From: Candidatus Bathyarchaeia archaeon | GTDB lineage: Archaea > Thermoproteota > Bathyarchaeia > 40CM-2-53-6 | Assembly: GCA_049513715.1 (NCBI GenBank) | Contig: JBEKVV010000004.1 | Coordinates: forward strand, 160,001 to 224,000 | Length of the DNA stretch: 64,000 nucleotides | Reading direction: 5' to 3' | Part shown: positions 36,836-54,248 of the stretch, piece by piece | Layout of the letters: each line of letters starts with the position of its first letter | Numbering within the stretch: the first letter of the stretch is position 1 | Notes under the pieces: generated by a model | Seen by the model: only the letters and a program-made list of their open reading frames with translations | Told to the model about the DNA's origin: nothing | The model's database searches: none | Made by a program: the position numbers and the translations under genes

Positions 36836-37243
36836 CTAGACCAGTTGCTTCACGTCGTCTGTGACGGCTTGGCCTAGGAATCCGTAGACCCCGAGCTTCA
36901 GAACCTTCAACCCTAGAAGGGCGCATTTGATTCTTGTTGGTCCAGGGTCGATTCCGAGCAGGTTAAGGACGTCGGGTTTGCTTAGGGCTTTGACTTGGTC
37001 GAGTGTCTTGCCTTTGGCGGCTTCGGTCAGCATTGAGGCGGATGCTTGGCTGATGGCGCAGCCTCTGCCCTTGAACCGCAGATCCTCAACCTTTCCATCC
37101 TTGATCTTCAGTTGCATTTCGATGATGTCGCCGCAGAGGGGGTTTGAGTCTTTGACGCGAACATCAGGGTCTTGAAGGTCGCCGAAGTTGCGCGGGTTTC
37201 GGTAGTAGTCGAGGATAATATCCTTGTAGATGTCCGAACTCAT
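36836..37243 (-). CDS. sufU: SufU/IscU Fe-S scaffold
   Basis: NPLCGD, GCAISQAS and RIKCA motifs. Confidence 0.92.
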   Translation of the reverse strand: MSSDIYKDIILDYYRNPRNFGDLQDPDVRVKDSNPLCGDIIEMQLKIKDGKVEDLRFKGRGCAISQASASMLTEAAKGKTLDQVKALSKPDVLNLLGIDPGPTRIKCALLGLKVLKLGVYGFLGQAVTDDVKQLV

Positions 37244-38484
37244 CTGTCGAATAGCTTCCTGGCTTTCTCGAGGGCGTTGATGAACACATCAACTTCCTCT
37301 TTAGTGTTATAGATGTAGAAGCTGGCCCTAGTCGCTGCGGGTATGTCCAAGAATTCCATTAGCGGTTGGGCGCAATGGTGCCCCGACCTCACCGCAATCC
37401 CATCCTCGTCGAGGATTGAGGCAAGATCGTGGGCGTGGATGTCCCCCAAGTTGAAGGAGAGTACACCGACTCTGCGATTGACATCTTTGGAGCCGTATAC
37501 AACTGTGCCCTTGACACCTGCCATTTTGTCCAGCGCGTAAGCGGTAATCTGCTTTTCGTGGTCGAGCACATTCTGCATGCCTATCTTCCGGAGATAGTCG
37601 ACTGCAGCTCCAAGTCCTATGGCACCGGCGATGTTCGGCGTCCCAGCCTCGAATTTGTACGGAATCTCCTTCCAGGATGCGCCGGTCGTGTGAACCTCCT
37701 TAATCATCTCCCCCCCACCGAGAAACGGGGGCATCTTCTCCAAAATGTCACGCTTGCCGTAGAGGACGCCGATTCCTGTAGGCCCCAGCATCTTATGCCC
37801 AGAGAACGCCATGAAGTCACAATCAATATCTTTGGCGTCGACGCGCATGTGCGGAACGGACTGGGCTGCATCAACGAAACACAGGGCGCCTACCCGGTGC
37901 GCTGCTTTCGCAATATCCTTTACAGGGTTAATTGTTCCGATCACATTAGATGCGTGAACCACGCAAACAATCTTGGTTTTCTCATCGATTAGTTCCTGAA
38001 TTTCGTTCTCCCGTAGGAATCCGTTTTGGTCAATTTTGATGAATTCGACCTGAGCCTCCTTCTCTTGAGCGAGTAACTGCCATGGAACAATGTTGCTGTG
38101 GTGTTCCATTATGGTTAGAACTATTTTGTCGCCTTTCTCAATGTTGGTGCGGCCCCAGGCGTAGGCCACTAGGTTCATGGCCTCAGTCGCATTTCGGGTA
38201 AATACAATCTCCTCGGTGTGCTTGGCGTTTATGAACTTCCCAACGTTCTCCCGAGCATTCTCATGTGCGACTGTCGCTTCCTCAGCAAGTTTGTGGATGC
38301 CGCGGTGAATGTTTGCGTTGTACTCCAGGTAGAACTTATCCATGGCATCGATTACGCAGGTTGGTTTTTGGGAAGTTGCGGCGTTGTCGAAGTATACGAG
38401 AGGTTTCCCGTTGACGTGCCGCTTGAGTATTGGGAAGTCCTCTCGAATTTTGAGAACGTTTATGGTTTCGAGCTTCTCCACCAA
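37240..38484 (-). CDS. sufS: SufS-type cysteine desulfurase
   Basis: DNAATSQKP, EHHSN, SGHKM and RSGHHCAQP motifs. Confidence 0.95.
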   Translation of the reverse strand: MVEKLETINVLKIREDFPILKRHVNGKPLVYFDNAATSQKPTCVIDAMDKFYLEYNANIHRGIHKLAEEATVAHENARENVGKFINAKHTEEIVFTRNATEAMNLVAYAWGRTNIEKGDKIVLTIMEHHSNIVPWQLLAQEKEAQVEFIKIDQNGFLRENEIQELIDEKTKIVCVVHASNVIGTINPVKDIAKAAHRVGALCFVDAAQSVPHMRVDAKDIDCDFMAFSGHKMLGPTGIGVLYGKRDILEKMPPFLGGGEMIKEVHTTGASWKEIPYKFEAGTPNIAGAIGLGAAVDYLRKIGMQNVLDHEKQITAYALDKMAGVKGTVVYGSKDVNRRVGVLSFNLGDIHAHDLASILDEDGIAVRSGHHCAQPLMEFLDIPAATRASFYIYNTKEEVDVFINALEKARKLFDR

Positions 38485-38501: not shown

Positions 38502-38843
38502 TCACGTAATACTCGTTGAAATAACGTACGGCATACCCCTATAAACACTCAACTTAACGGTTCTGTCAAGTCTGTGGTTGGTGTTGTCGTCTCGGTCGGG
38601 TGTAAATTTCCGTTTGGCAGGTACAGGCATTACCTCAAGCCACAGCACATCATCGGCGAATGTTCGGGCATATATGACGGCGTGCCCCTCCTTTGATTTC
38701 ATCTCGAAGTAGTATTGGATGGGTATGTTCTTGACTTGCATTAGTCTGGGCTTTCTGCTGCATTCGTGTGCTTCAAGTTGTTCTGCGATTAAGGTCTCTC
38801 CACACGTTTGACACTTTACCATGTTGCCGTGAATGTCAATCAT
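38502..38843 (-). CDS. Small Zn-finger protein (passenger); reads through the left TIR
   Basis: CQTCGE...HEC motif; ATG lies next to the stop of the upstream ORF. Confidence 0.6.
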   Translation of the reverse strand: MIDIHGNMVKCQTCGETLIAEQLEAHECSRKPRLMQVKNIPIQYYFEMKSKEGHAVIYARTFADDVLWLEVMPVPAKRKFTPDRDDNTNHRLDRTVKLSVYRGMPYVISTSIT

Positions 38844-39426
38844 TTTTCTTCTCACCTCTTTCAAGACCTGTTGTAAACTTGTCTTTGTTGAGTTGGTCGA
38901 GGAAATCATGTTTCTCTTTCAAATCTTGGTAATCGGCTTTCAACTTTTGAATCTCAACCTTAAGCTGCTCATTCTCTGTTCTCAGTGCCTTGTTCTCGCC
39001 TCGCAGATGATCAATGTCTGAATCAGATATTTCGTCGAGAACTCCTAGAACTCGCGCTTGCTCCACAGCTTTGTTGAGGTAGTCCGTCATTCTAGAGAGC
39101 CCTGCATCCTCGCGATTGAACAGTATTCTGTAGTGATGTTTCCACTCATCATCCGTTGCCTCTTTGAATTTCTGTAGGTGCTGCTCGCGAGCATTTCTGA
39201 GTTCCTTGAAGTCTGCAATCAGGTCGCCAAGCAGTTTCGCGAGGTTTACACGGTCTCTCATGTCGAGCTGGTTGGGATTTTCAACCTCATGTTTCGCTGC
39301 TTCTGGTTTGACCTTAGTTAAGTGCGCGTCATATCTTCTACAAAACTCCGACGCTGTATTGAGTGATGCTTCCACTATTATTGAGTGGAGTTCCAACAGG
39401 CTATCACTTGTGTTTCGGTTTTGCAT
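38836..39426 (-). CDS. Coiled-coil hypothetical protein (passenger)
   Basis: Heptad-rich C-terminus LRGENKALRTENEQLKVEIQKLK. Confidence 0.6.
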   Translation of the reverse strand: MQNRNTSDSLLELHSIIVEASLNTASEFCRRYDAHLTKVKPEAAKHEVENPNQLDMRDRVNLAKLLGDLIADFKELRNAREQHLQKFKEATDDEWKHHYRILFNREDAGLSRMTDYLNKAVEQARVLGVLDEISDSDIDHLRGENKALRTENEQLKVEIQKLKADYQDLKEKHDFLDQLNKDKFTTGLERGEKKND

Positions 39427-39616
39427 TTTTGGCTGGGGCTTGAGGAAGTGGAGCTTTGCGTACTATTGCTATTCGTTCTCCGCTTTGTACGTCCATTCGC
39501 CATTCGAGTTTGTCGCCTTCCGTGAGTTGGAGGAACGCTACCATGCCTTCTGGTACGGTTGCGCGAAGCGACTTAGCCCCTGTTCTTGCTATTCCCACTG
39601 TAGATTGTAGGCTCAT
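39404..39616 (-). CDS. AbrB/MazE/SpoVT-family DNA-binding protein
   Basis: SLRATVPEGMVAFLQLTEGDKLEW; divergent from the transposase. Confidence 0.8.
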   Translation of the reverse strand: MSLQSTVGIARTGAKSLRATVPEGMVAFLQLTEGDKLEWRMDVQSGERIAIVRKAPLPQAPAKNAKPKHK

Positions 39617-39755
39617 AGCTGCTAGGTATGTGGATTGTAGTTCTTAAATTTACCTACCAGAGCGCACTTAGGGCGTATGGTAGAGCGATAGATGTGTAGA
39701 TGTGTTTTAATACCAGATGTATACAATATGTAGGTAGATAGGAAGGCGCACCGAT

Positions 39756-40898
39756 ATGATGGCTATAACACGAGAACTCAGGGGCAAAGAAATAGCGGCT
39801 GCACCCAACCAAATCGAGCGTGTTGGCAATGTTTCGTACAAAGTGAAGTCTCAATCGGGTAACGGCTGCTATGATGTTACATTCTCGACTGTGAATGGTT
39901 GGGATTGCACTTGCCCCGACCATGTATTCCGCTTGGTGGAGTGTAAGCACATTTGGGCCGTAATGTGCAGCTTCGCCATCAGAAAGGAAGTTGAAGCCAA
40001 CGTAATCGAACCGATAGTAGATGTTCACGCTTGCGTATTCTGCAAATCTGAAAATCTCATACGATTTGGTTTGAGACATAACAAGTGCGGCGATCTACAG
40101 AAGTTCTCCTGCAAGTCATGCGGAAAAATATTCACGGTAAATCTGGGTTTCGAGCGCATGAAGCACAATCCACAAGGAATCACAACCGCTATGCAACTCT
40201 ACTTCAGCGGAGAAAGTCTACGGAACGTAGCCAAATCACTCAAGCTAATCGGCGTTCAAGTAAGCCACCAAACGGTCTACAACTGGATATCTAAATACAC
40301 CACCCTAATGGAAAAGTACCTAGACAAAATCACTCCACAGGTCGGCAATACTTGGAGAGCCGATGAACTATTCCTCAAAGTCAAAGGGAACATGAAGTAT
40401 CTCTACGCCCTCATGGACGACCAAACACGATTCTGGATAGCACAAGAAGTAATGAACACCAAATACGTTGCAGATGTTCAACCGCTATTTGCAGAAGGCA
40501 AACGCAGAACAGGCATAGAACCAAAATACATCATAACTGACGGTGCAAGAAATTATGACAAAGCGATTCGGAAAGAGTTTCACGGCAACTTCCGCTACGC
40601 TGGCCCGAAACACATTCGGGACATCAGATTCGATGGAACAACCCACAACAACAAAATGGAACGCATGAATGGAGAAATCCGAGACCGAGAAAAAGTCATG
40701 CGGTCACTCAAGAAAGCGGACACGCCAATCCTAACAGGGCTCCAAATCTATCACAACTACGTGCGCCCACACATGGGCTTAAATGGAAAGACACCCGCAG
40801 ACCTATCGGGAATAACCATCCAAGGTAACGACAAATGGTTGACAATGATACAAAACGCTGCACAGCGCACCCCAAGGGAGAAGAAAAGTGAAAGTTAG
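39756..40898 (+). CDS. IS6-family-like DDE transposase with N-terminal SWIM and Zn-ribbon domains
   Basis: SWIM CTCPDH...CKH; CVFC...CKSC; HTH SLRNVA...SHQTVYNW; catalytic WRADE, ITDG and NNKMER. Confidence 0.88.
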   Translation: MMAITRELRGKEIAAAPNQIERVGNVSYKVKSQSGNGCYDVTFSTVNGWDCTCPDHVFRLVECKHIWAVMCSFAIRKEVEANVIEPIVDVHACVFCKSENLIRFGLRHNKCGDLQKFSCKSCGKIFTVNLGFERMKHNPQGITTAMQLYFSGESLRNVAKSLKLIGVQVSHQTVYNWISKYTTLMEKYLDKITPQVGNTWRADELFLKVKGNMKYLYALMDDQTRFWIAQEVMNTKYVADVQPLFAEGKRRTGIEPKYIITDGARNYDKAIRKEFHGNFRYAGPKHIRDIRFDGTTHNNKMERMNGEIRDREKVMRSLKKADTPILTGLQIYHNYVRPHMGLNGKTPADLSGITIQGNDKWLTMIQNAAQRTPREKKSES

Positions 40899-41229
40899 CG
40901 CAACTGGCATAGAGGCCACATCCGAACCTACAGACAAAGAGTTCGAGGGTCTCCTTAGAGATGAATTGAAGAGATACTTGCAAGAAAAACTTGGAGCTAT
41001 GAAAACAATCAAACTAGATAGAACTCAGAGTTTCGACCTCAAGACCGTGAGGCTGAAAATGTCGGAACAAATCACCAAGCCTGAGTTCGCCTCAGTTGTT
41101 GCTGCCTATGTCTCGCTACTGTCACAAGAGAAGCAGGCAAGAACGAACATGATGCTGGAAGGGATGATGCTTCTGCTTACTGGCGCAAGTGTGTTAATCT
41201 TGATAGTGCAACTTTTTGGTCACCGCTGA
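40888..41229 (+). CDS. Hypothetical protein with C-terminal TM helix (passenger)
   Basis: Overlaps the transposase stop; hydrophobic C-terminus. Confidence 0.55.
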   Translation: MKVSATGIEATSEPTDKEFEGLLRDELKRYLQEKLGAMKTIKLDRTQSFDLKTVRLKMSEQITKPEFASVVAAYVSLLSQEKQARTNMMLEGMMLLLTGASVLILIVQLFGHR

Positions 41230-41305
41230 GTCCCGAAGACGAAACAGAACCGAGGAAATAGTTCTTTTTAGGCAGCCATGTTGGTCTTTCCTCTGGGAAG
41301 CAACA

Positions 41306-41563
41306 ATGCCGAAAGTCACCTTCAAGGTTCACAAGGCAGGATTTCAGCCGGAAACAGAGGATTTGACCAGATTAGTGGATAAAGAAGTGGAACTGTCAGA
41401 GCTGAACGCTAAACGTTTCTTACTAGACCCACATCAAGAGACGCTGTGGGACACTTGCCGATTCTCTGAAACTAAGTTGCCCTTTGACGAGTGGTTGACA
41501 AAGTGCGGCAACTGGAATAATGAAACGAAAATGTTCCAAGTTACAAGAACCCCGTCAAGGTAA
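41306..41563 (+). CDS. Hypothetical protein (passenger)
   Basis: ORF from ATG 41306 ending just inside the right TIR. Confidence 0.45.
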   Translation: MPKVTFKVHKAGFQPETEDLTRLVDKEVELSELNAKRFLLDPHQETLWDTCRFSETKLPFDEWLTKCGNWNNETKMFQVTRTPSR

Positions 41564-41874
41564 GCCCACCAAACGAAAGTTGACAGCCCTAAGAATCACT
41601 CTTACCAACCATAGACTTGACAGTACCAACTTAACGGTTCTGTTAAGTTCTAGGATGTTGGTTCGACTGTTAAGCATCGGGTGATGCCCCCTATCTTAGA
41701 CTATTAGTTGTTTGTTTAGTCGGCTCTGTTCGGTTTATGGCTGTTCGATGAAGCTGTTCGGGCATCGGTGGATGTCCATTCAGAACACCCTGTATCGTGC
41801 GCACAAAAATCATGGTTCAAATTTGGCTGCCCGCACCAGTAGACCCACACACACGAAAGACCCAAGCTGTTGCC

Positions 41875-42573
41875 CTACTTCTCTACAGCGACTTCGAACT
41901 TATCGCTGACTTTCAAGTGATGCCATCGTGAGTCAAAGCCTACGTTGCGCATATTTCTGACTCGGATGAGGTTCCGAGTCTCGTCACCTGCTTCCTCAAG
42001 TTTGAAATCGACGGTGCCATCTAGCGCAGCCTCCAGCTGTTTGCATGCCCAGTCACTATGAACGCCTCTGATAATTCCCATGATTCCTATTTCTCCTCCC
42101 GGGAGGACCGCTGGAATGGCTCGGGTGAGCGCGAACTCGACCCACGCTTTCTCATCGTTGAATCTGGCTATTGTCGAAAAGTTGTCCACGATGTTCAGCC
42201 AAGCCCCGGTGGGTGGACCTTTCAGGAATTGCGAGAACCAGATGCTCAGATCTGCGACCCTCAATGAATCACGCGCGAACTTCTCCTGGGACTTTCGGCC
42301 AAGCGTGACCGTGTACCAGTCGATGATTCTCAGAAGGTCATCTCTTTCGAGAACATCTGTATTCAGTCCTAACTGTTTCAGTCGCAAGCGAACCTTGTCA
42401 GGAGGTTGAGTGCTAACATAGTACGCGAGGGGGCCTCCAGTTCTTAGCCATTCAGCCGCGATTGTTAGGGAGGCATTGTACCATTGCGATGATGCGTCAT
42501 ACTCCACCAGGATAGAAGAACCGGGCTGAATTGGCCCAGTGGTCAAATCTTCGATTAACGGAATCTTGGGCAC
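41875..42573 (-). CDS. RAD55/KaiC-like protein with degenerate P-loop
   Basis: MPKIPLIEDLTTGPIQPGSSILVEY, DGTVDFK and RVRNMRN; GTG start at 42573. Confidence 0.7.
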   Translation of the reverse strand: MPKIPLIEDLTTGPIQPGSSILVEYDASSQWYNASLTIAAEWLRTGGPLAYYVSTQPPDKVRLRLKQLGLNTDVLERDDLLRIIDWYTVTLGRKSQEKFARDSLRVADLSIWFSQFLKGPPTGAWLNIVDNFSTIARFNDEKAWVEFALTRAIPAVLPGGEIGIMGIIRGVHSDWACKQLEAALDGTVDFKLEEAGDETRNLIRVRNMRNVGFDSRWHHLKVSDKFEVAVEK

Positions 42574-42726
42574 GGCATAAACACAGAAACAGGATGGAAG
42601 GAACTGCAAGTTGTGGCTTTTGGTTGTGTGTGTGGGAATGGTGGTGCGCACGCACACTTTTTCCAACGACGGACGATGACGATTCGTTTTCAGAAGTACT
42701 GCACAAACAAGAACAATGATCGGTGG

Positions 42727-42924
42727 CTATTGCGGTCGTTCGCCTATTTCTAGGTGAACGAGCTTGTTCCAGTGTCGTTGGCCACAGATAGGGCATTTGA
42801 CATAATACCATGCGTAGCCGGGAATTCCTCCGATGCCTGCTCTCGCTCCGATAATCCAGCCGGTCTTTTCGAATGAAGTGCGACATTTGGCACATAGCAG
42901 GGTCCATTTCGGGGGCAATTTCAC
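42727..42924 (-). CDS. Small Zn-ribbon protein
   Basis: CAKC and CPIC pairs. Confidence 0.6.
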   Translation of the reverse strand: MKLPPKWTLLCAKCRTSFEKTGWIIGARAGIGGIPGYAWYYVKCPICGQRHWNKLVHLEIGERPQ

Positions 42925-43108
42925 TAGCTCTTTGTTTTCGAATGGGCGTCTGCGCGCAATTAGCGTTACTTCGTCTAGTCGTGTGCGGCTACCAGTGGGG
43001 GGGGAGCACCATAATTTGAACGGTCGTTTCAGGCGTTTTTCGTGTGTGTGCGCACCACAACTAGGCCACTAACACAAAGTCATACGAAAACCGTTAGACT
43101 CATTCTGA

Positions 43109-43930
43109 CTAGACTGAATGAGGGCGGCTTGAATATGCCCCGCTCAGCGAGGATTTTCTAGTCCTCCTCAAGAAAGTCGCCACGACTAAGAGTGCTAATA
43201 AGAGAACTGGCACAACTTCGGGGAATTCGGAAATTGGCACCGACGTAGTCTGCAGACTACCCCAAGTACTTGGAATCTTGAAGTTCGCATCGCCGGGATA
43301 ATCAGCCGCGAGGTCGGTGTGAGTGGCGTCTTTCATGTAAAGATAGAGACCGATTGTTCCAGGAACATGCGTCTTCAAGCTTGCAAAAGCCAGGGCAATT
43401 CGCGCTTCTACGATCATGTGAGTTGTTTTTGAATTCGGAGAGAAGCTGTACGATAGTGCCGCCTTGATGTCAGTGCCTGTGTACGTAGTCCAGTCGGTCC
43501 AGCCCCCGGAGCTTGTTCCTTCAGAGGCATAGATATTGACCAGAAATCCTCCGACATCAGCGAAGTCCAAGCGATACACATTCTGATTCAGTGAGTTTGA
43601 CTTCTGATTTGACGGATCTAGGTACATACCGACCTCATTCCGATCGTCGGTCCCGCCGTAAGGAGCTTGGCAGCCAACGAAATCCCAAACAACATACAAG
43701 TAGTTCGAATCGTACTTCGCCGCGAAGTATCCTACAATCCCAGAGACTCCGGCCTCCATGGGGAGGGCAATTGTATCACTCCATTCCTTCGCCGTCGTAT
43801 ACGTTCCGTCAAGTATAACCAGATTGACGAGTGGATACAGAACGAGCGTCCCTTGTGAGTGCGCGTGAGGAATTTGTATGGCGAGAAACAGTATGGCTAC
43901 GATAGCCAGTTTGGCCACGCGTAATTTCAT
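43109..43930 (-). CDS. Secreted surface protein with PEF-CTERM-like anchor
   Basis: Signal peptide; beta-rich domain; C-terminal ISEFP, TM helix and basic tail RRTRK. Confidence 0.7.
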   Translation of the reverse strand: MKLRVAKLAIVAILFLAIQIPHAHSQGTLVLYPLVNLVILDGTYTTAKEWSDTIALPMEAGVSGIVGYFAAKYDSNYLYVVWDFVGCQAPYGGTDDRNEVGMYLDPSNQKSNSLNQNVYRLDFADVGGFLVNIYASEGTSSGGWTDWTTYTGTDIKAALSYSFSPNSKTTHMIVEARIALAFASLKTHVPGTIGLYLYMKDATHTDLAADYPGDANFKIPSTWGSLQTTSVPISEFPEVVPVLLLALLVVATFLRRTRKSSLSGAYSSRPHSV

Positions 43931-44132
43931 GCTACGCCGCCAGATTCTCAAGTAAATTCCTAAAGCCGTTAAAAGCCTTCTCGTGTGCGTACTGTATTAC
44001 AAGACACCAATATTGGATCGCAATTCTTCGTGTGTGTGCGCACCATTAGACCCGCGCCCACAAGATTTGAACCTGACATAGCCGCGATGGGAATTAGCCC
44101 AACGTTATGACAGAACGCACACATAGCCTGAG

Positions 44133-44594
44133 TTAGGCGTCTCTCTTTTCATCTTTGTAGTTACTTTCCGCTTGGGTCTTGAGGTTTCGCAACCACGTAT
44201 CCAGCGAATTATCGAGAAACTTTGGCATTATGAGTTTCAACAACCTAACCGACCAGCCTTCCATGGACTCTTCTGTCGTAACCAGCGTGCCGTTGTTTTG
44301 CGGTGTGAATTTCCAAATATGTTTGGCTTGGGCACCCAGCGATTTGCCTGTCCAGCCAATCAAGTCATTCGGCTCGAGCACTTGGACAGTGGAAGTTACA
44401 TTCAGACCCCCGGTTCTCCACCGAAAGACAGAGCCGACGGCGAGAGGGCTTCCGAGCTTGGATGCTGTTGTGGCAGGTTGCCACTTACTCCAATTGTTGA
44501 TGTCTGTTTGGATGTTCCAGACGGTTTGAGGCGGCGCCTCGATGAAGATATCCTTGTGGGCGAACAAGGGAGCATCCTTATTGACTTCCATCAA
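44133..44594 (-). CDS. SRPBCC/START-like family protein
   Basis: IEAPPQTVWNIQTDINNWSKWQP motif. Confidence 0.82.
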   Translation of the reverse strand: MMEVNKDAPLFAHKDIFIEAPPQTVWNIQTDINNWSKWQPATTASKLGSPLAVGSVFRWRTGGLNVTSTVQVLEPNDLIGWTGKSLGAQAKHIWKFTPQNNGTLVTTEESMEGWSVRLLKLIMPKFLDNSLDTWLRNLKTQAESNYKDEKRDA

Positions 44595-44597
44595 TTT

Positions 44598-44873
44598 TCA
44601 CTCTGTTCGCTGTCCGTGTTGCCGCCGAGATATGAAGCGTGTGTGCGCACCAGTAGACCTCCTGTATCGTGGACGCCAATACAGATAGTTGATTGCTATT
44701 GCGAGTGTCGCGGGAACAATGATTGCAAAAACCATTACAGGCACAACATTCCATGTCGCTCCGAACTTCTGTATCAGCAGAATCGCCGTCACCACTGAAA
44801 TCGACACAGTAACGGCGCTCACGATAAGCAATCTAGCAACGAGACTTATCATATGCTCCTTTGACTTTGTCAT
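44598..44873 (-). CDS. Small two-TM membrane protein
   Basis: Two hydrophobic segments; the 3' end overlaps a repeat copy. Confidence 0.5.
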   Translation of the reverse strand: MTKSKEHMISLVARLLIVSAVTVSISVVTAILLIQKFGATWNVVPVMVFAIIVPATLAIAINYLYWRPRYRRSTGAHTRFISRRQHGQRTE

Positions 44874-44991
44874 TCGGCCTCACTTCTCCTTCTGCTCTTC
44901 TTCCCTACATTCCATGTTTGATATCCACCGAAGGTTAACAACAATGCCAAAGGCTCATCCACTTAACAGAACCAACTTAACAGGAGGCAGC

Positions 44992-45007
44992 TTTCCAATG
45001 TTGGAAA
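44992..45007. promoter_or_regulatory. Palindromic operator TTTCCAA-TG-TTGGAAA
   Basis: Perfect inverted repeat upstream of 45051; second copy at 50705-50718. Confidence 0.6.
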
Positions 45008-45050
45008 ACGTGTTGGCGCTTAATAGTGCGATTCTTCTCTCCGACCACGC

Positions 45051-45728
45051 ATGAACGACAGGACTCTATTGGGCGTCGCAATCCTCACATTAGTGATCGC
45101 AGGCGCGTCCCTGACGCAAACTTTTCTCCTAACCGCGGCGGTGACCGACCAAAATAGGCATATCAATCAGCTGGCCTCACAATTTGGAGACCTTGCAGGT
45201 CTAGTATCGTCTCTCATGACGCAGAGCAGTCCCAACACTTCATCGAACAACGTCGTATACTTGGAGGTCGTTCCCGATTTCGGTGGGTCCACTTATGACG
45301 CTTTTGTTCTGCCCACATCCCTCAGTGGTAACACGCCAAACGCATCATCTAATGTCGGCGCCGCGCCAAACAACAACATAACTGTACAGCACGGTGTACC
45401 GATCAAATTCGTTATCAGCAACTTAGATACCGCACTGCTACAGAACTTCACCAGTCAAGTCTCAGTGCCCTTCACACTCTACAACAATACCGATTCCGGC
45501 CAAGTGGCCCTACAGTACACCCAGGGTGAGACAGTATCCAACATGGCGATCAGCCACACGTTCAGCATCCCCGATCTGCAGGTGAACATCCCCATACCCC
45601 CTGACACAATGGTCGTGTTCACTTACACCTTCACCACACCCGGTGTCTACGCATACGTCTGTGTTACTCCATGCGGGCCGGGTATGGGATTAGCGGGCTA
45701 CATGCTAGGTTACGTAACAGTCACGTAA
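45051..45728 (+). CDS. Membrane-anchored cupredoxin-fold protein
   Basis: N-terminal TM helix; SHTF and PGVYAYVCVTPCGPGMGLAGYM motifs. Confidence 0.75.
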   Translation: MNDRTLLGVAILTLVIAGASLTQTFLLTAAVTDQNRHINQLASQFGDLAGLVSSLMTQSSPNTSSNNVVYLEVVPDFGGSTYDAFVLPTSLSGNTPNASSNVGAAPNNNITVQHGVPIKFVISNLDTALLQNFTSQVSVPFTLYNNTDSGQVALQYTQGETVSNMAISHTFSIPDLQVNIPIPPDTMVVFTYTFTTPGVYAYVCVTPCGPGMGLAGYMLGYVTVT

Positions 45729-54148: not shown

Positions 54149-54196
54149 AGACCTACAGAACCAACTAGACGGTTCTGTCAAGTGTTAGTTTGGTAG
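54149..54196. mobile_element. Back-to-back IS6-type TIR junction
   Basis: AGACCTACAGAACC (54149-54162), AACTAGAC (54163-54170), GGTTCTGTCAAGT (54171-54183). Confidence 0.7.
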
Positions 54197-54248
54197 CATA
54201 GGGTTTGGGGAGAAGCTGTCAAGGATCGTGTGGTCAAGCTCCCACCTA

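Follow-up and report, generated by a model that had tools for sequence, protein, structure and literature searches.

Probable promoter-anchored transposition and polar stacking in an IS6-like transposon family of Archaea

The 64,000-nucleotide stretch of DNA analyzed here (the window), part of contig C4 of the 2.79-Mb genome (G000) of a Candidatus Bathyarchaeia archaeon, carries two transposable elements stacked end to end beside sufS, a host gene for cysteine desulfurase. Three copies of the octamer AACTTAAC are present in the window (38551-38558, 41628-41635, and 44974-44981) and bracket the autonomous element E1 (38559-41627, plus strand, 3,069 bp) and the transposase-free element E2 (41636-44973, 3,338 bp). 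As seen at each junction, the terminal inverted repeats (TIRs) of both elements begin with GG, have a G at position 7, and abut the octamers directly with a spacer of zero, which bears out a preliminary description of the locus as a tandem stack at one octamer. The interiors of E1 and E2 are unrelated, and their ends match over only 12 of the outer 13 bp. Genome-wide, AACTTAAC was counted 60 times, so the site is not unique, and it is used as a duplication once; the duplications at the genome's remaining elements are unrelated to it.

The sufS gene (37240-38484, minus strand; PF00266, E value of 5.9e-157) reads away from the stack and was conserved in 22 of 22 congeners. A putative TATA box of sufS, assigned by its consensus, lies at 38540-38545 on the minus strand (TATAAA on the plus strand and TTTATA on that of the promoter), with 5 nt between it and the first octamer. 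Reading from sufS into the stack, the order is TATAAA, 5 nt, octamer, and TIR. By position, E1 is the youngest element and E2 is older: the first octamer is promoter proximal and is the predicted target of the next insertion, the second forms an 8-bp TIR-TIR junction, and the third is distal. The sufS TATA box has a counterpart at the equivalent position in 13 of 20 sufS loci, and congener G006 carries a different element and a different octamer at the same sufS position. An empty site had been expected in relatives; the exact allele was not found among the congeners, which are other species with 66 to 77% identity at sufS and for the most part have a ferredoxin-like gene beyond the promoter. 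The sufS position was unoccupied in 11 of them. Likeness to the congeners begins 6 nt beyond the stack, at the start of an accessory cupredoxin-like/4Fe-4S oxidoreductase operon (44987-45728, plus strand). In the window, sufS does not stand beside the ferredoxin-like and sufD-like genes, named from their translations, that precede it in most congeners, and the best sufD-like match lies on another contig (G000:C3:26070).

For a survey of the family, 151 loci were fetched by the transposase alone, with titles naming Bathyarchaeia, Nitrososphaeria, Asgard archaea, and Methanoperedens. Elements with a TIR pair and a perfect 8-bp repeat were recognized in 91 of them, and 88 were left after removal of duplicates and short flanks; since the calling rule demanded the GG start and the G at position 7, this set cannot test that TIR trait. 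Element lengths ranged from 1,983 to 6,159 bp with a median of 3.3 kb, in line with the large, cargo-bearing IS6-like family with 8-bp duplications that had been proposed. A strict motif, YWTAWA, stood 5 nt from the duplication in 35 elements, 7 nt in 27, and 3 nt in 8, and at most two elements matched at each offset from 8 to 44 nt; the 7-nt and 3-nt matches are evidently other registers of the same putative TATA box. With a looser TATA motif, 60 of the 88 elements matched at 5 nt and five or fewer at offsets of 8 to 44 nt. A later set was gathered from distant transposases with both motifs unchanged (56 matches in 53 loci, 27 delimited). Among its 25 elements with a SWIM-bearing transposase, one of which (L321) is a false call, the loose motif matched at 5 nt in 13 and at 7 nt in 14, with two or fewer beyond (8 to 39 nt), and the duplication was 8 bp in all 25 (lengths tried in the order 8, 9, 7, and 10). 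Of the two delimited elements lacking SWIM, one lay at a TATA box at 5 nt. When 59 genomes were scanned with a variable-gap pattern, 62 matches were obtained, with a gap of 13 in 28, of 15 in 7, and of 27 in 7, and three or fewer at every other gap; the gap-27 matches fall in a conserved stretch read as coding.

In the 88-element set, a conserved AA(T) stands on the promoter strand between the target and the TATA box. The transcription factor B recognition element (BRE) is expected at this very place. An outward open reading frame (ORF) was present at 44 of the 60 TATA sites, in 29 clusters, and the representatives of 22 clusters received Pfam names, among them Hsp20, chaperonin, SufB, ribosomal proteins, TBP, TFB, proteasome, and tRNA synthetase. 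On a quick transposase tree the TATA label is scattered (25 changes versus 23.2 after shuffling), which argues that anchoring is family-wide. Genes for tRNA, tried as an alternative class of target, were dropped (3 tRNA calls in 36 sources scanned). The duplications themselves vary, with 79 distinct sequences among the 88 elements, and differ even at the same promoter between species, so that the target selectivity for an octamer claimed in the preliminary description does not hold. Instead, we consider it highly probable from these alignments that the target is chosen by position, as the 8 bp starting 5 nt upstream of the host TATA box, on the BRE side. Insertion on that side leaves the promoter and its gene intact.

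Next, the stacks were examined as a class. With every locus taken together, an 8-bp spacer was present in 69 of 74 distinct TIR-TIR junctions, as scored with an end profile trained on these elements and not on spacers, and a fixed-pattern scan of 23 genomes gave three junctions, all with 8-bp spacers. From the 69 junctions, 46 could be traced to a TATA box at the stack end and 22 were unresolved; the only one without a TATA box (1 of 47 resolved) stops at a missed degenerate TIR. TATA-anchored sites numbered 61, and 24 of these held two or more elements. The transposase was intact in 21 of 24 promoter-proximal elements and in 4 of 24 second elements, a polarity that the window fits with intact E1 proximal and transposase-free E2 distal. 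Among elements of the 88-element set beside a neighboring end, 23 were TATA proximal, 3 internal, and 2 otherwise placed, and 40 of the 88 lay at a TATA box without any neighboring end. At the first rank both orientations occurred (35 versus 23). The same octamer was reused up to five or more times, and stacks were found in many genomes, which agrees with the earlier proposal that repeated insertion into one octamer builds arrays.

Several stacks had features of their own. Those at Hsp20 promoters (G000:C2:146960-149734, L025, L031, L034, and L035) contain up to five or more elements with GGTAACG-type ends, and downstream of the TATA box in Hsp20 and further heat-shock promoters there is a GTTAC-N4-GTAAC palindrome that resembles the inner TIR box. 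In some stacks (L029 and L030) the shared octamer is reverse complemented at one junction, suggesting that inversions took place between copies in inverted orientation; other stacks show a one-base drift of the octamer over their length. The window holds a second, decayed end-to-end junction at 54151-54230, composed of a relic right end, 8 bp, and a strong left end (54171, with inner box); a matching far end or transposase remnant was not found for it.

E1 carries its transposase together with at least four other ORFs. The 380-aa transposase (39756-40898, plus strand) contains a DDE_Tnp_IS240 domain (PF13610; 53 bits against a cutoff of 27), and its layout comprises a SWIM domain (C51, C53, C63, and H65), a zinc ribbon (C93, C96, C119, and C122), a helix-turn-helix, and a DDE triad (D203, D262, and E302). 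The four SWIM ligands, the DDE residues, and three of the four zinc-ribbon cysteines were invariant in 100 aligned homologues, and 5,212 homologues were recovered at an E value of ≤0.001. Among NCBIfam models, the IS6 equivalog NF033587 was the best family, yet its 111.3 bits fall below the cutoff of 125; the IS256 model scored far lower (29.9 bits, cutoff of 150). A structure model from a deeper alignment reached a predicted local distance difference test (pLDDT) score of 90.6 and matched the ISCth4 transposase and retroviral integrases, which points to an RNase H/integrase fold; a first model from close homologues (pLDDT of 62) yielded no fold match at an E value of ≤0.001. The left TIR of E1 (38559-38582, plus strand) is followed by a second TGTNAA-like box that starts 43 nt in, and its 24-nt arm is 92% complementary to that of the right TIR (41604-41627, minus strand). 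In the family, the inner-box spacing (33 or 43 nt) was concordant within elements in 58 of 63 cases and scattered on the quick transposase tree; as a marker of transposase clades it was therefore dropped, and it gives no basis for holding that E1 cannot move E2.

To the left of the transposase gene and divergent from it lies a 70-aa AbrB/MazE-like protein (39404-39616, minus strand; PF04014, E value of 0.012, under the cutoff), a candidate autoregulator with homologues in 15 of the 88 elements and in the nonautonomous element at C1:639218. It is followed on the same strand by a 196-aa coiled-coil ORF (38836-39426), with no family over the cutoff and homologues in 0 of 88 elements, and by a 135-aa ORF with a Cys-rich motif (38502-38909), with homologues in 4 of 88. 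The frame of the latter crosses the left TIR, the octamer, and the TATA box into the sufS promoter region, and since this leftward operon (38502-39616) points at sufS, read-through into sufS may occur. Downstream of the transposase gene is a 113-aa ORF with a hydrophobic C terminus (40888-41229, plus strand) and no Pfam or NCBIfam match. Next to it, the relic right end of another family member (41230-41251, minus strand; profile score of 22.3) lies 8 plus 5 nt from a TATA-like run preceding an internal ORF, which suggests that an internal promoter once took a nested insertion.

E2 consists of a core of about 470 bp and an inserted block. No transposase was matched in it at an E value of ≤0.001. 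Its right TIR (44961-44973, minus strand) forms a perfect 13-bp pair with 41636-41648, and a second box follows 33 to 34 nt in. Over 47 nt, the left end of E2 has a likeness of 79% to the corresponding end of the 894-bp element at C1:639218; in this genome, two small transposase-free elements have left ends that resemble it. Near this end, 41722-41799 (minus strand) is the displaced 3' end of a small membrane-protein gene whose 5' part (44598-44873, minus strand) now continues as an ORF into the inserted block; in three congeners, the sequences corresponding to 41722-41799 and 44661-44875 lie side by side as a single gene. A profile match at 41722, once considered a relic TIR, was rejected on this comparison. 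Direct repeats of 10 bp (41790-41799 and 44662-44671) border the 2.87-kb block (41800-44661, minus strand), which has four modules: a KaiC-like ATPase (41875-42666), a zinc-finger ORF (42727-42924), a secreted 280-aa ORF (43109-43951), and an SRPBCC protein (44133-44594). As the comparison with congeners shows, E2 is a small nonautonomous family member whose single native gene was split by this block.

The modules of the block are associated with a repeat resembling a tRNA 3' end (41814-41838, plus strand; 19 of 25 nt identical to the 3' end of a tRNA-Val of this genome), with relatives at 42642-42657 (minus strand), 43036-43057, 44024-44045, and 44631-44652 and 55 motif matches genome-wide. 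These repeats border single-gene modules, and the block appears to have entered E2 with a 10-bp duplication inside the gene. Congeners contain three of the four modules, each by itself and with the same borders; the 88 autonomous elements contain none of the five genes of E2; and 23 genomes revealed no further complete copy of E2. The single modules with shared borders, their absence from the 88 elements, and the repeat at the borders argue that the bulk of the E2 cargo came by another route, a separate tRNA-tail-repeat system, and was mostly not gathered by an E1-family transposase. The idea of mobilized cargo units thus survives in part: transposase-free units with perfect duplications do exist (five in this genome), whereas most of what E2 carries has a different origin. 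The genome encodes two tyrosine recombinases over the cutoff. It also has two TBP and four TFB genes (C2:4238-4840, C5:204483, and C9:3-869), and the second TBP gene has a tRNA-tail repeat on either side, so that basal factors, too, may be cargo. The 280-aa secreted protein gave no Pfam or NCBIfam match; it ends in a PEF-like motif, a hydrophobic helix, and a basic tail, a layout that we take to be that of archaeosortase substrates.

A number of observations weigh against positional anchoring or limit its reach. The loose TATA motif was written after the data had been seen, and the strict motif had its peak in the later set at 7 nt (10 of 25), as against 3 at 5 nt. The sites are not independent, because promoters recur across related species (Hsp20 at 6 and chaperonin at 5 of the 44 sites with an outward ORF). 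For the polarity, the loci were chosen for an intact transposase, and five of the second-rank elements are cut by contig ends, without which 4 of 19 are intact. All six Hsp20 sites carry elements of a single TIR type, which a tether to a general factor alone does not predict and which hints at an added sequence or end preference. The empty site of the window matches the left TIR of E2 over 10 nt, as against a set maximum of 6. In the contigs of four public sequencing runs, neither an E2-only allele nor an empty allele of this species was seen. Finally, 20 of the 88 elements have neither a loose TATA motif nor a junction (several have near-matches), all five other closed transposase-free elements of this genome lie away from TATA boxes, and so does one of two identical 2,748-bp autonomous copies, whose presence at two sites of this genome indicates copying. 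A second, untargeted route therefore operates and seems to be dominant for nonautonomous copies in this genome. Multicopy elements with the same TIR type and no DDE transposase also lie at the ends of contigs C4, C5, C6, C7, and C8 of G000; two of these ends share one octamer, and no TATA box adjoins them. They appear from their translations to carry a gene that is presumably TnpB-like (IS605 OrfB-like).

The mechanism that we propose starts from the architecture, register, polarity, and split gene as established by comparing sequences. Insertion would duplicate the 8-bp target and leave its TATA-proximal copy at the same distance from the TATA box, and because that distance is unchanged, the target site would be recreated. 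A later element would then enter the TATA-proximal copy and push the resident outward, so that stacks of alternating duplications and elements would grow at the promoter end, in either orientation. In the window, the E2 ends would have arrived first, their core moved in trans by some family transposase, and E1 second; the E2 gene would have been split by the block from the tRNA-tail-repeat system. For the targeting step, we lean slightly toward recruitment of the transpososome by TBP and/or TFB bound at the promoter, by analogy with Ty3. A complex prediction for TBP, the TFB core, and transposase residues 1 to 135 scored 0.00 against a mark of 0.32, a result that speaks neither for nor against such recruitment. 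It is possible, though we think it the less probable course for this step, that the SWIM or zinc-ribbon domains read the TATA box and BRE directly or that bent or opened promoter DNA is captured without a tether. Base-pair precision is compatible with either route, the uniform TIR type at the Hsp20 sites hints at sequence reading, and passages on a casposase describe recognition of an offset without a host tether (PMC5137440). Yet the targets are housekeeping and stress promoters with a BRE-like motif, whereas TATA-like hexamers should be common elsewhere, and the element at a TATA box whose transposase lacks SWIM speaks, weakly, against readout through that domain.

Other explanations would do away with promoter anchoring altogether. 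A transpososome that captures a resident TIR and inserts 8 bp beyond it, in the manner of IS911/IS30 or IS26, would account for the 69 junctions at exactly 8 bp and for the uniform TIR type of the Hsp20 stacks, and IS26 and IS911 do target resident ends according to the relevant passages of PMC7986276. We nevertheless regard it as improbable, since 40 elements lie at a TATA box with no end to capture, the stacks are polar, and the only resolved junction without a TATA box ends at a missed degenerate TIR; moreover, targeted IS26 integration is described as needing identical ends (PMC7986276), and those of E1 and E2 differ. Choice of AACTTAAC itself, or of targets resembling the binding site of the transposase, is more improbable still. 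The 10-nt resemblance between the empty site and the E2 TIR, pointed out in the preliminary description, is real at this site, and octamers like TTACGTAA are found repeatedly together with TIRs of the GGTAACG type. Against this, the longest match of an empty site to its own TIR averaged 4.28 nt over 60 single insertions versus 4.24 nt after shuffling (95 of 300 shuffles as high), so the resemblance is not general; the octamer that recurs belongs to a single orthologous promoter and varies from species to species; and the diversity of the duplications, the other octamer at sufS in G006, and the single use of AACTTAAC among its 60 genomic copies point the same way. Random insertion followed by selection sparing only insertions upstream of promoters gains from the off-TATA insertions and from the intergenic survival bias expected in gene-dense genomes. 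It is scarcely credible, because any position farther upstream should be tolerable, yet strict matches fall from 35 at 5 nt to at most two per offset from 8 to 44 nt, and because one octamer is reused so often. An assembly artifact or tandem duplication, a thought raised by the origin of the sequence in a metagenome-assembled genome with 8.8% estimated contamination, has a negligible chance. Assembled contigs of four of the four public runs bridge all three junctions, with depth level with the flanks, and none lists a joint skipping E1 or E2; these runs are possibly the source of the window, hence nonindependent, and contigs drop rare variants. The unrelated interiors of E1 and E2 and the same architecture in many other genomes also speak against an artifact or duplication.

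Compared with known systems, the E1 family shares with IS6/IS26, and above all with its long zinc-finger clades and ISDsp3, the DDE_Tnp_IS240 domain, the GG TIR with G at position 7, the 8-bp duplication, the zinc finger ahead of the helix-turn-helix, and nonautonomous derivatives, as far as these are described in passages of PMC7986276 and PMC6807381. The norm given there is an element of about 0.8 kb, mostly 700 to 890 bp, with a transposase only of 213 to 254 aa (PMC7986276); the longest intact group spans 1,710 to 1,760 bp, and one member has a passenger gene (PMC7986276 and PMC6807381). E1, with 3,069 bp and 380 aa, lies outside this norm, and its family measures 2 to 6 kb with several passenger genes. 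The family also differs in its SWIM domain and two-box ends (SWIM has 0 mentions in PMC6807381) and in fixed-distance promoter targeting with polar stacks, which are absent from the IS6/IS26 passages of both papers. Archaeal and long members have been argued not to belong in IS6/IS26 (PMC6807381, in part).

Fixed-distance insertion upstream of a core promoter element is shared with TnGBS, ISLre2 (p-MULT 3), and ISKra4, DDE elements that insert 15 to 17 bp upstream of the −35 box and for which a tether to the initiation complex has been proposed (passages of PMC3942029). Those elements have Mutator-like (p-MULT) transposases with an N1-N2 signature, use bacterial sigma-A promoters, and are mostly oriented, whereas the E1 family is IS6-like, as the model scores of its transposase indicate, uses archaeal TATA/BRE promoters in both orientations, and forms stacks. 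The archaeal case mentioned in the same passages, ISH6, duplicates an AT-rich motif and is not an offset landing (PMC3942029). The Ty3 integrase, with its C-terminal domain and chromodomain, contacts TBP and Brf1 of TFIIIB for base-precise, harmless integration (passages of PMC8632968); Ty3 is a long-terminal-repeat retrotransposon that lands in the stretch separating the TATA box from the start site of RNA polymerase III genes, whereas the E1 family comprises DNA transposons landing upstream of the TATA box of protein-coding genes. Tandem casposon arrays and CRISPR-like integration resemble the stacks in their growth at one end and in an anchor outside the duplicated segment (parts of PMC5137440 and PMC6563490). 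Casposons differ in using Cas1, a duplication of about 15 bp, and one specific tRNA or gene, whereas the E1 family duplicates 8 bp at no fewer than 29 kinds of promoter, and no Cas1 integrase or PolB gene was found in E1 or E2 by ORF list and Pfam. The main text of a survey of thaumarchaeal mobile elements contains neither "TATA" nor "promoter," and no report of TATA-anchored archaeal transposons was found in the literature searched, which excluded subscription journals, ISfinder, and supplements.

Overall, we are confident, short of certainty, that this locus reflects a real feature, in which an IS6-like archaeal family transposes to sites anchored at promoters and polar stacking follows as a by-product. 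On a wider picture our confidence is evenly divided: the family, spread over Bathyarchaeia, Nitrososphaeria, and Asgard archaea, would dock on TBP-TFB and integrate in a fixed register, strong promoters would become sites on which elements can land time after time, with stacks that preserve the order of insertion as a CRISPR array does, and internal promoters would take nested insertions that reshuffle cargo. The question is testable with purified TBP, TFB, and one transposase. Harmless integration of several kilobases beside strong promoters could also provide a delivery tool for archaeal genetics. The family is large and its hosts include abundant uncultured as well as cultured archaea; its insertion points would locate active TATA boxes with single-base accuracy in organisms without mapped promoters, and its stacks would date insertions relative to one another. 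It is a first candidate for transposition guided by the transcription machinery in Archaea, linking the sigma-A-anchored TnGBS and ISLre2 with Ty3-TFIIIB, and, if the proposed recruitment is true, it would be the archaeal DNA-transposon counterpart of the Ty3-TFIIIB system.

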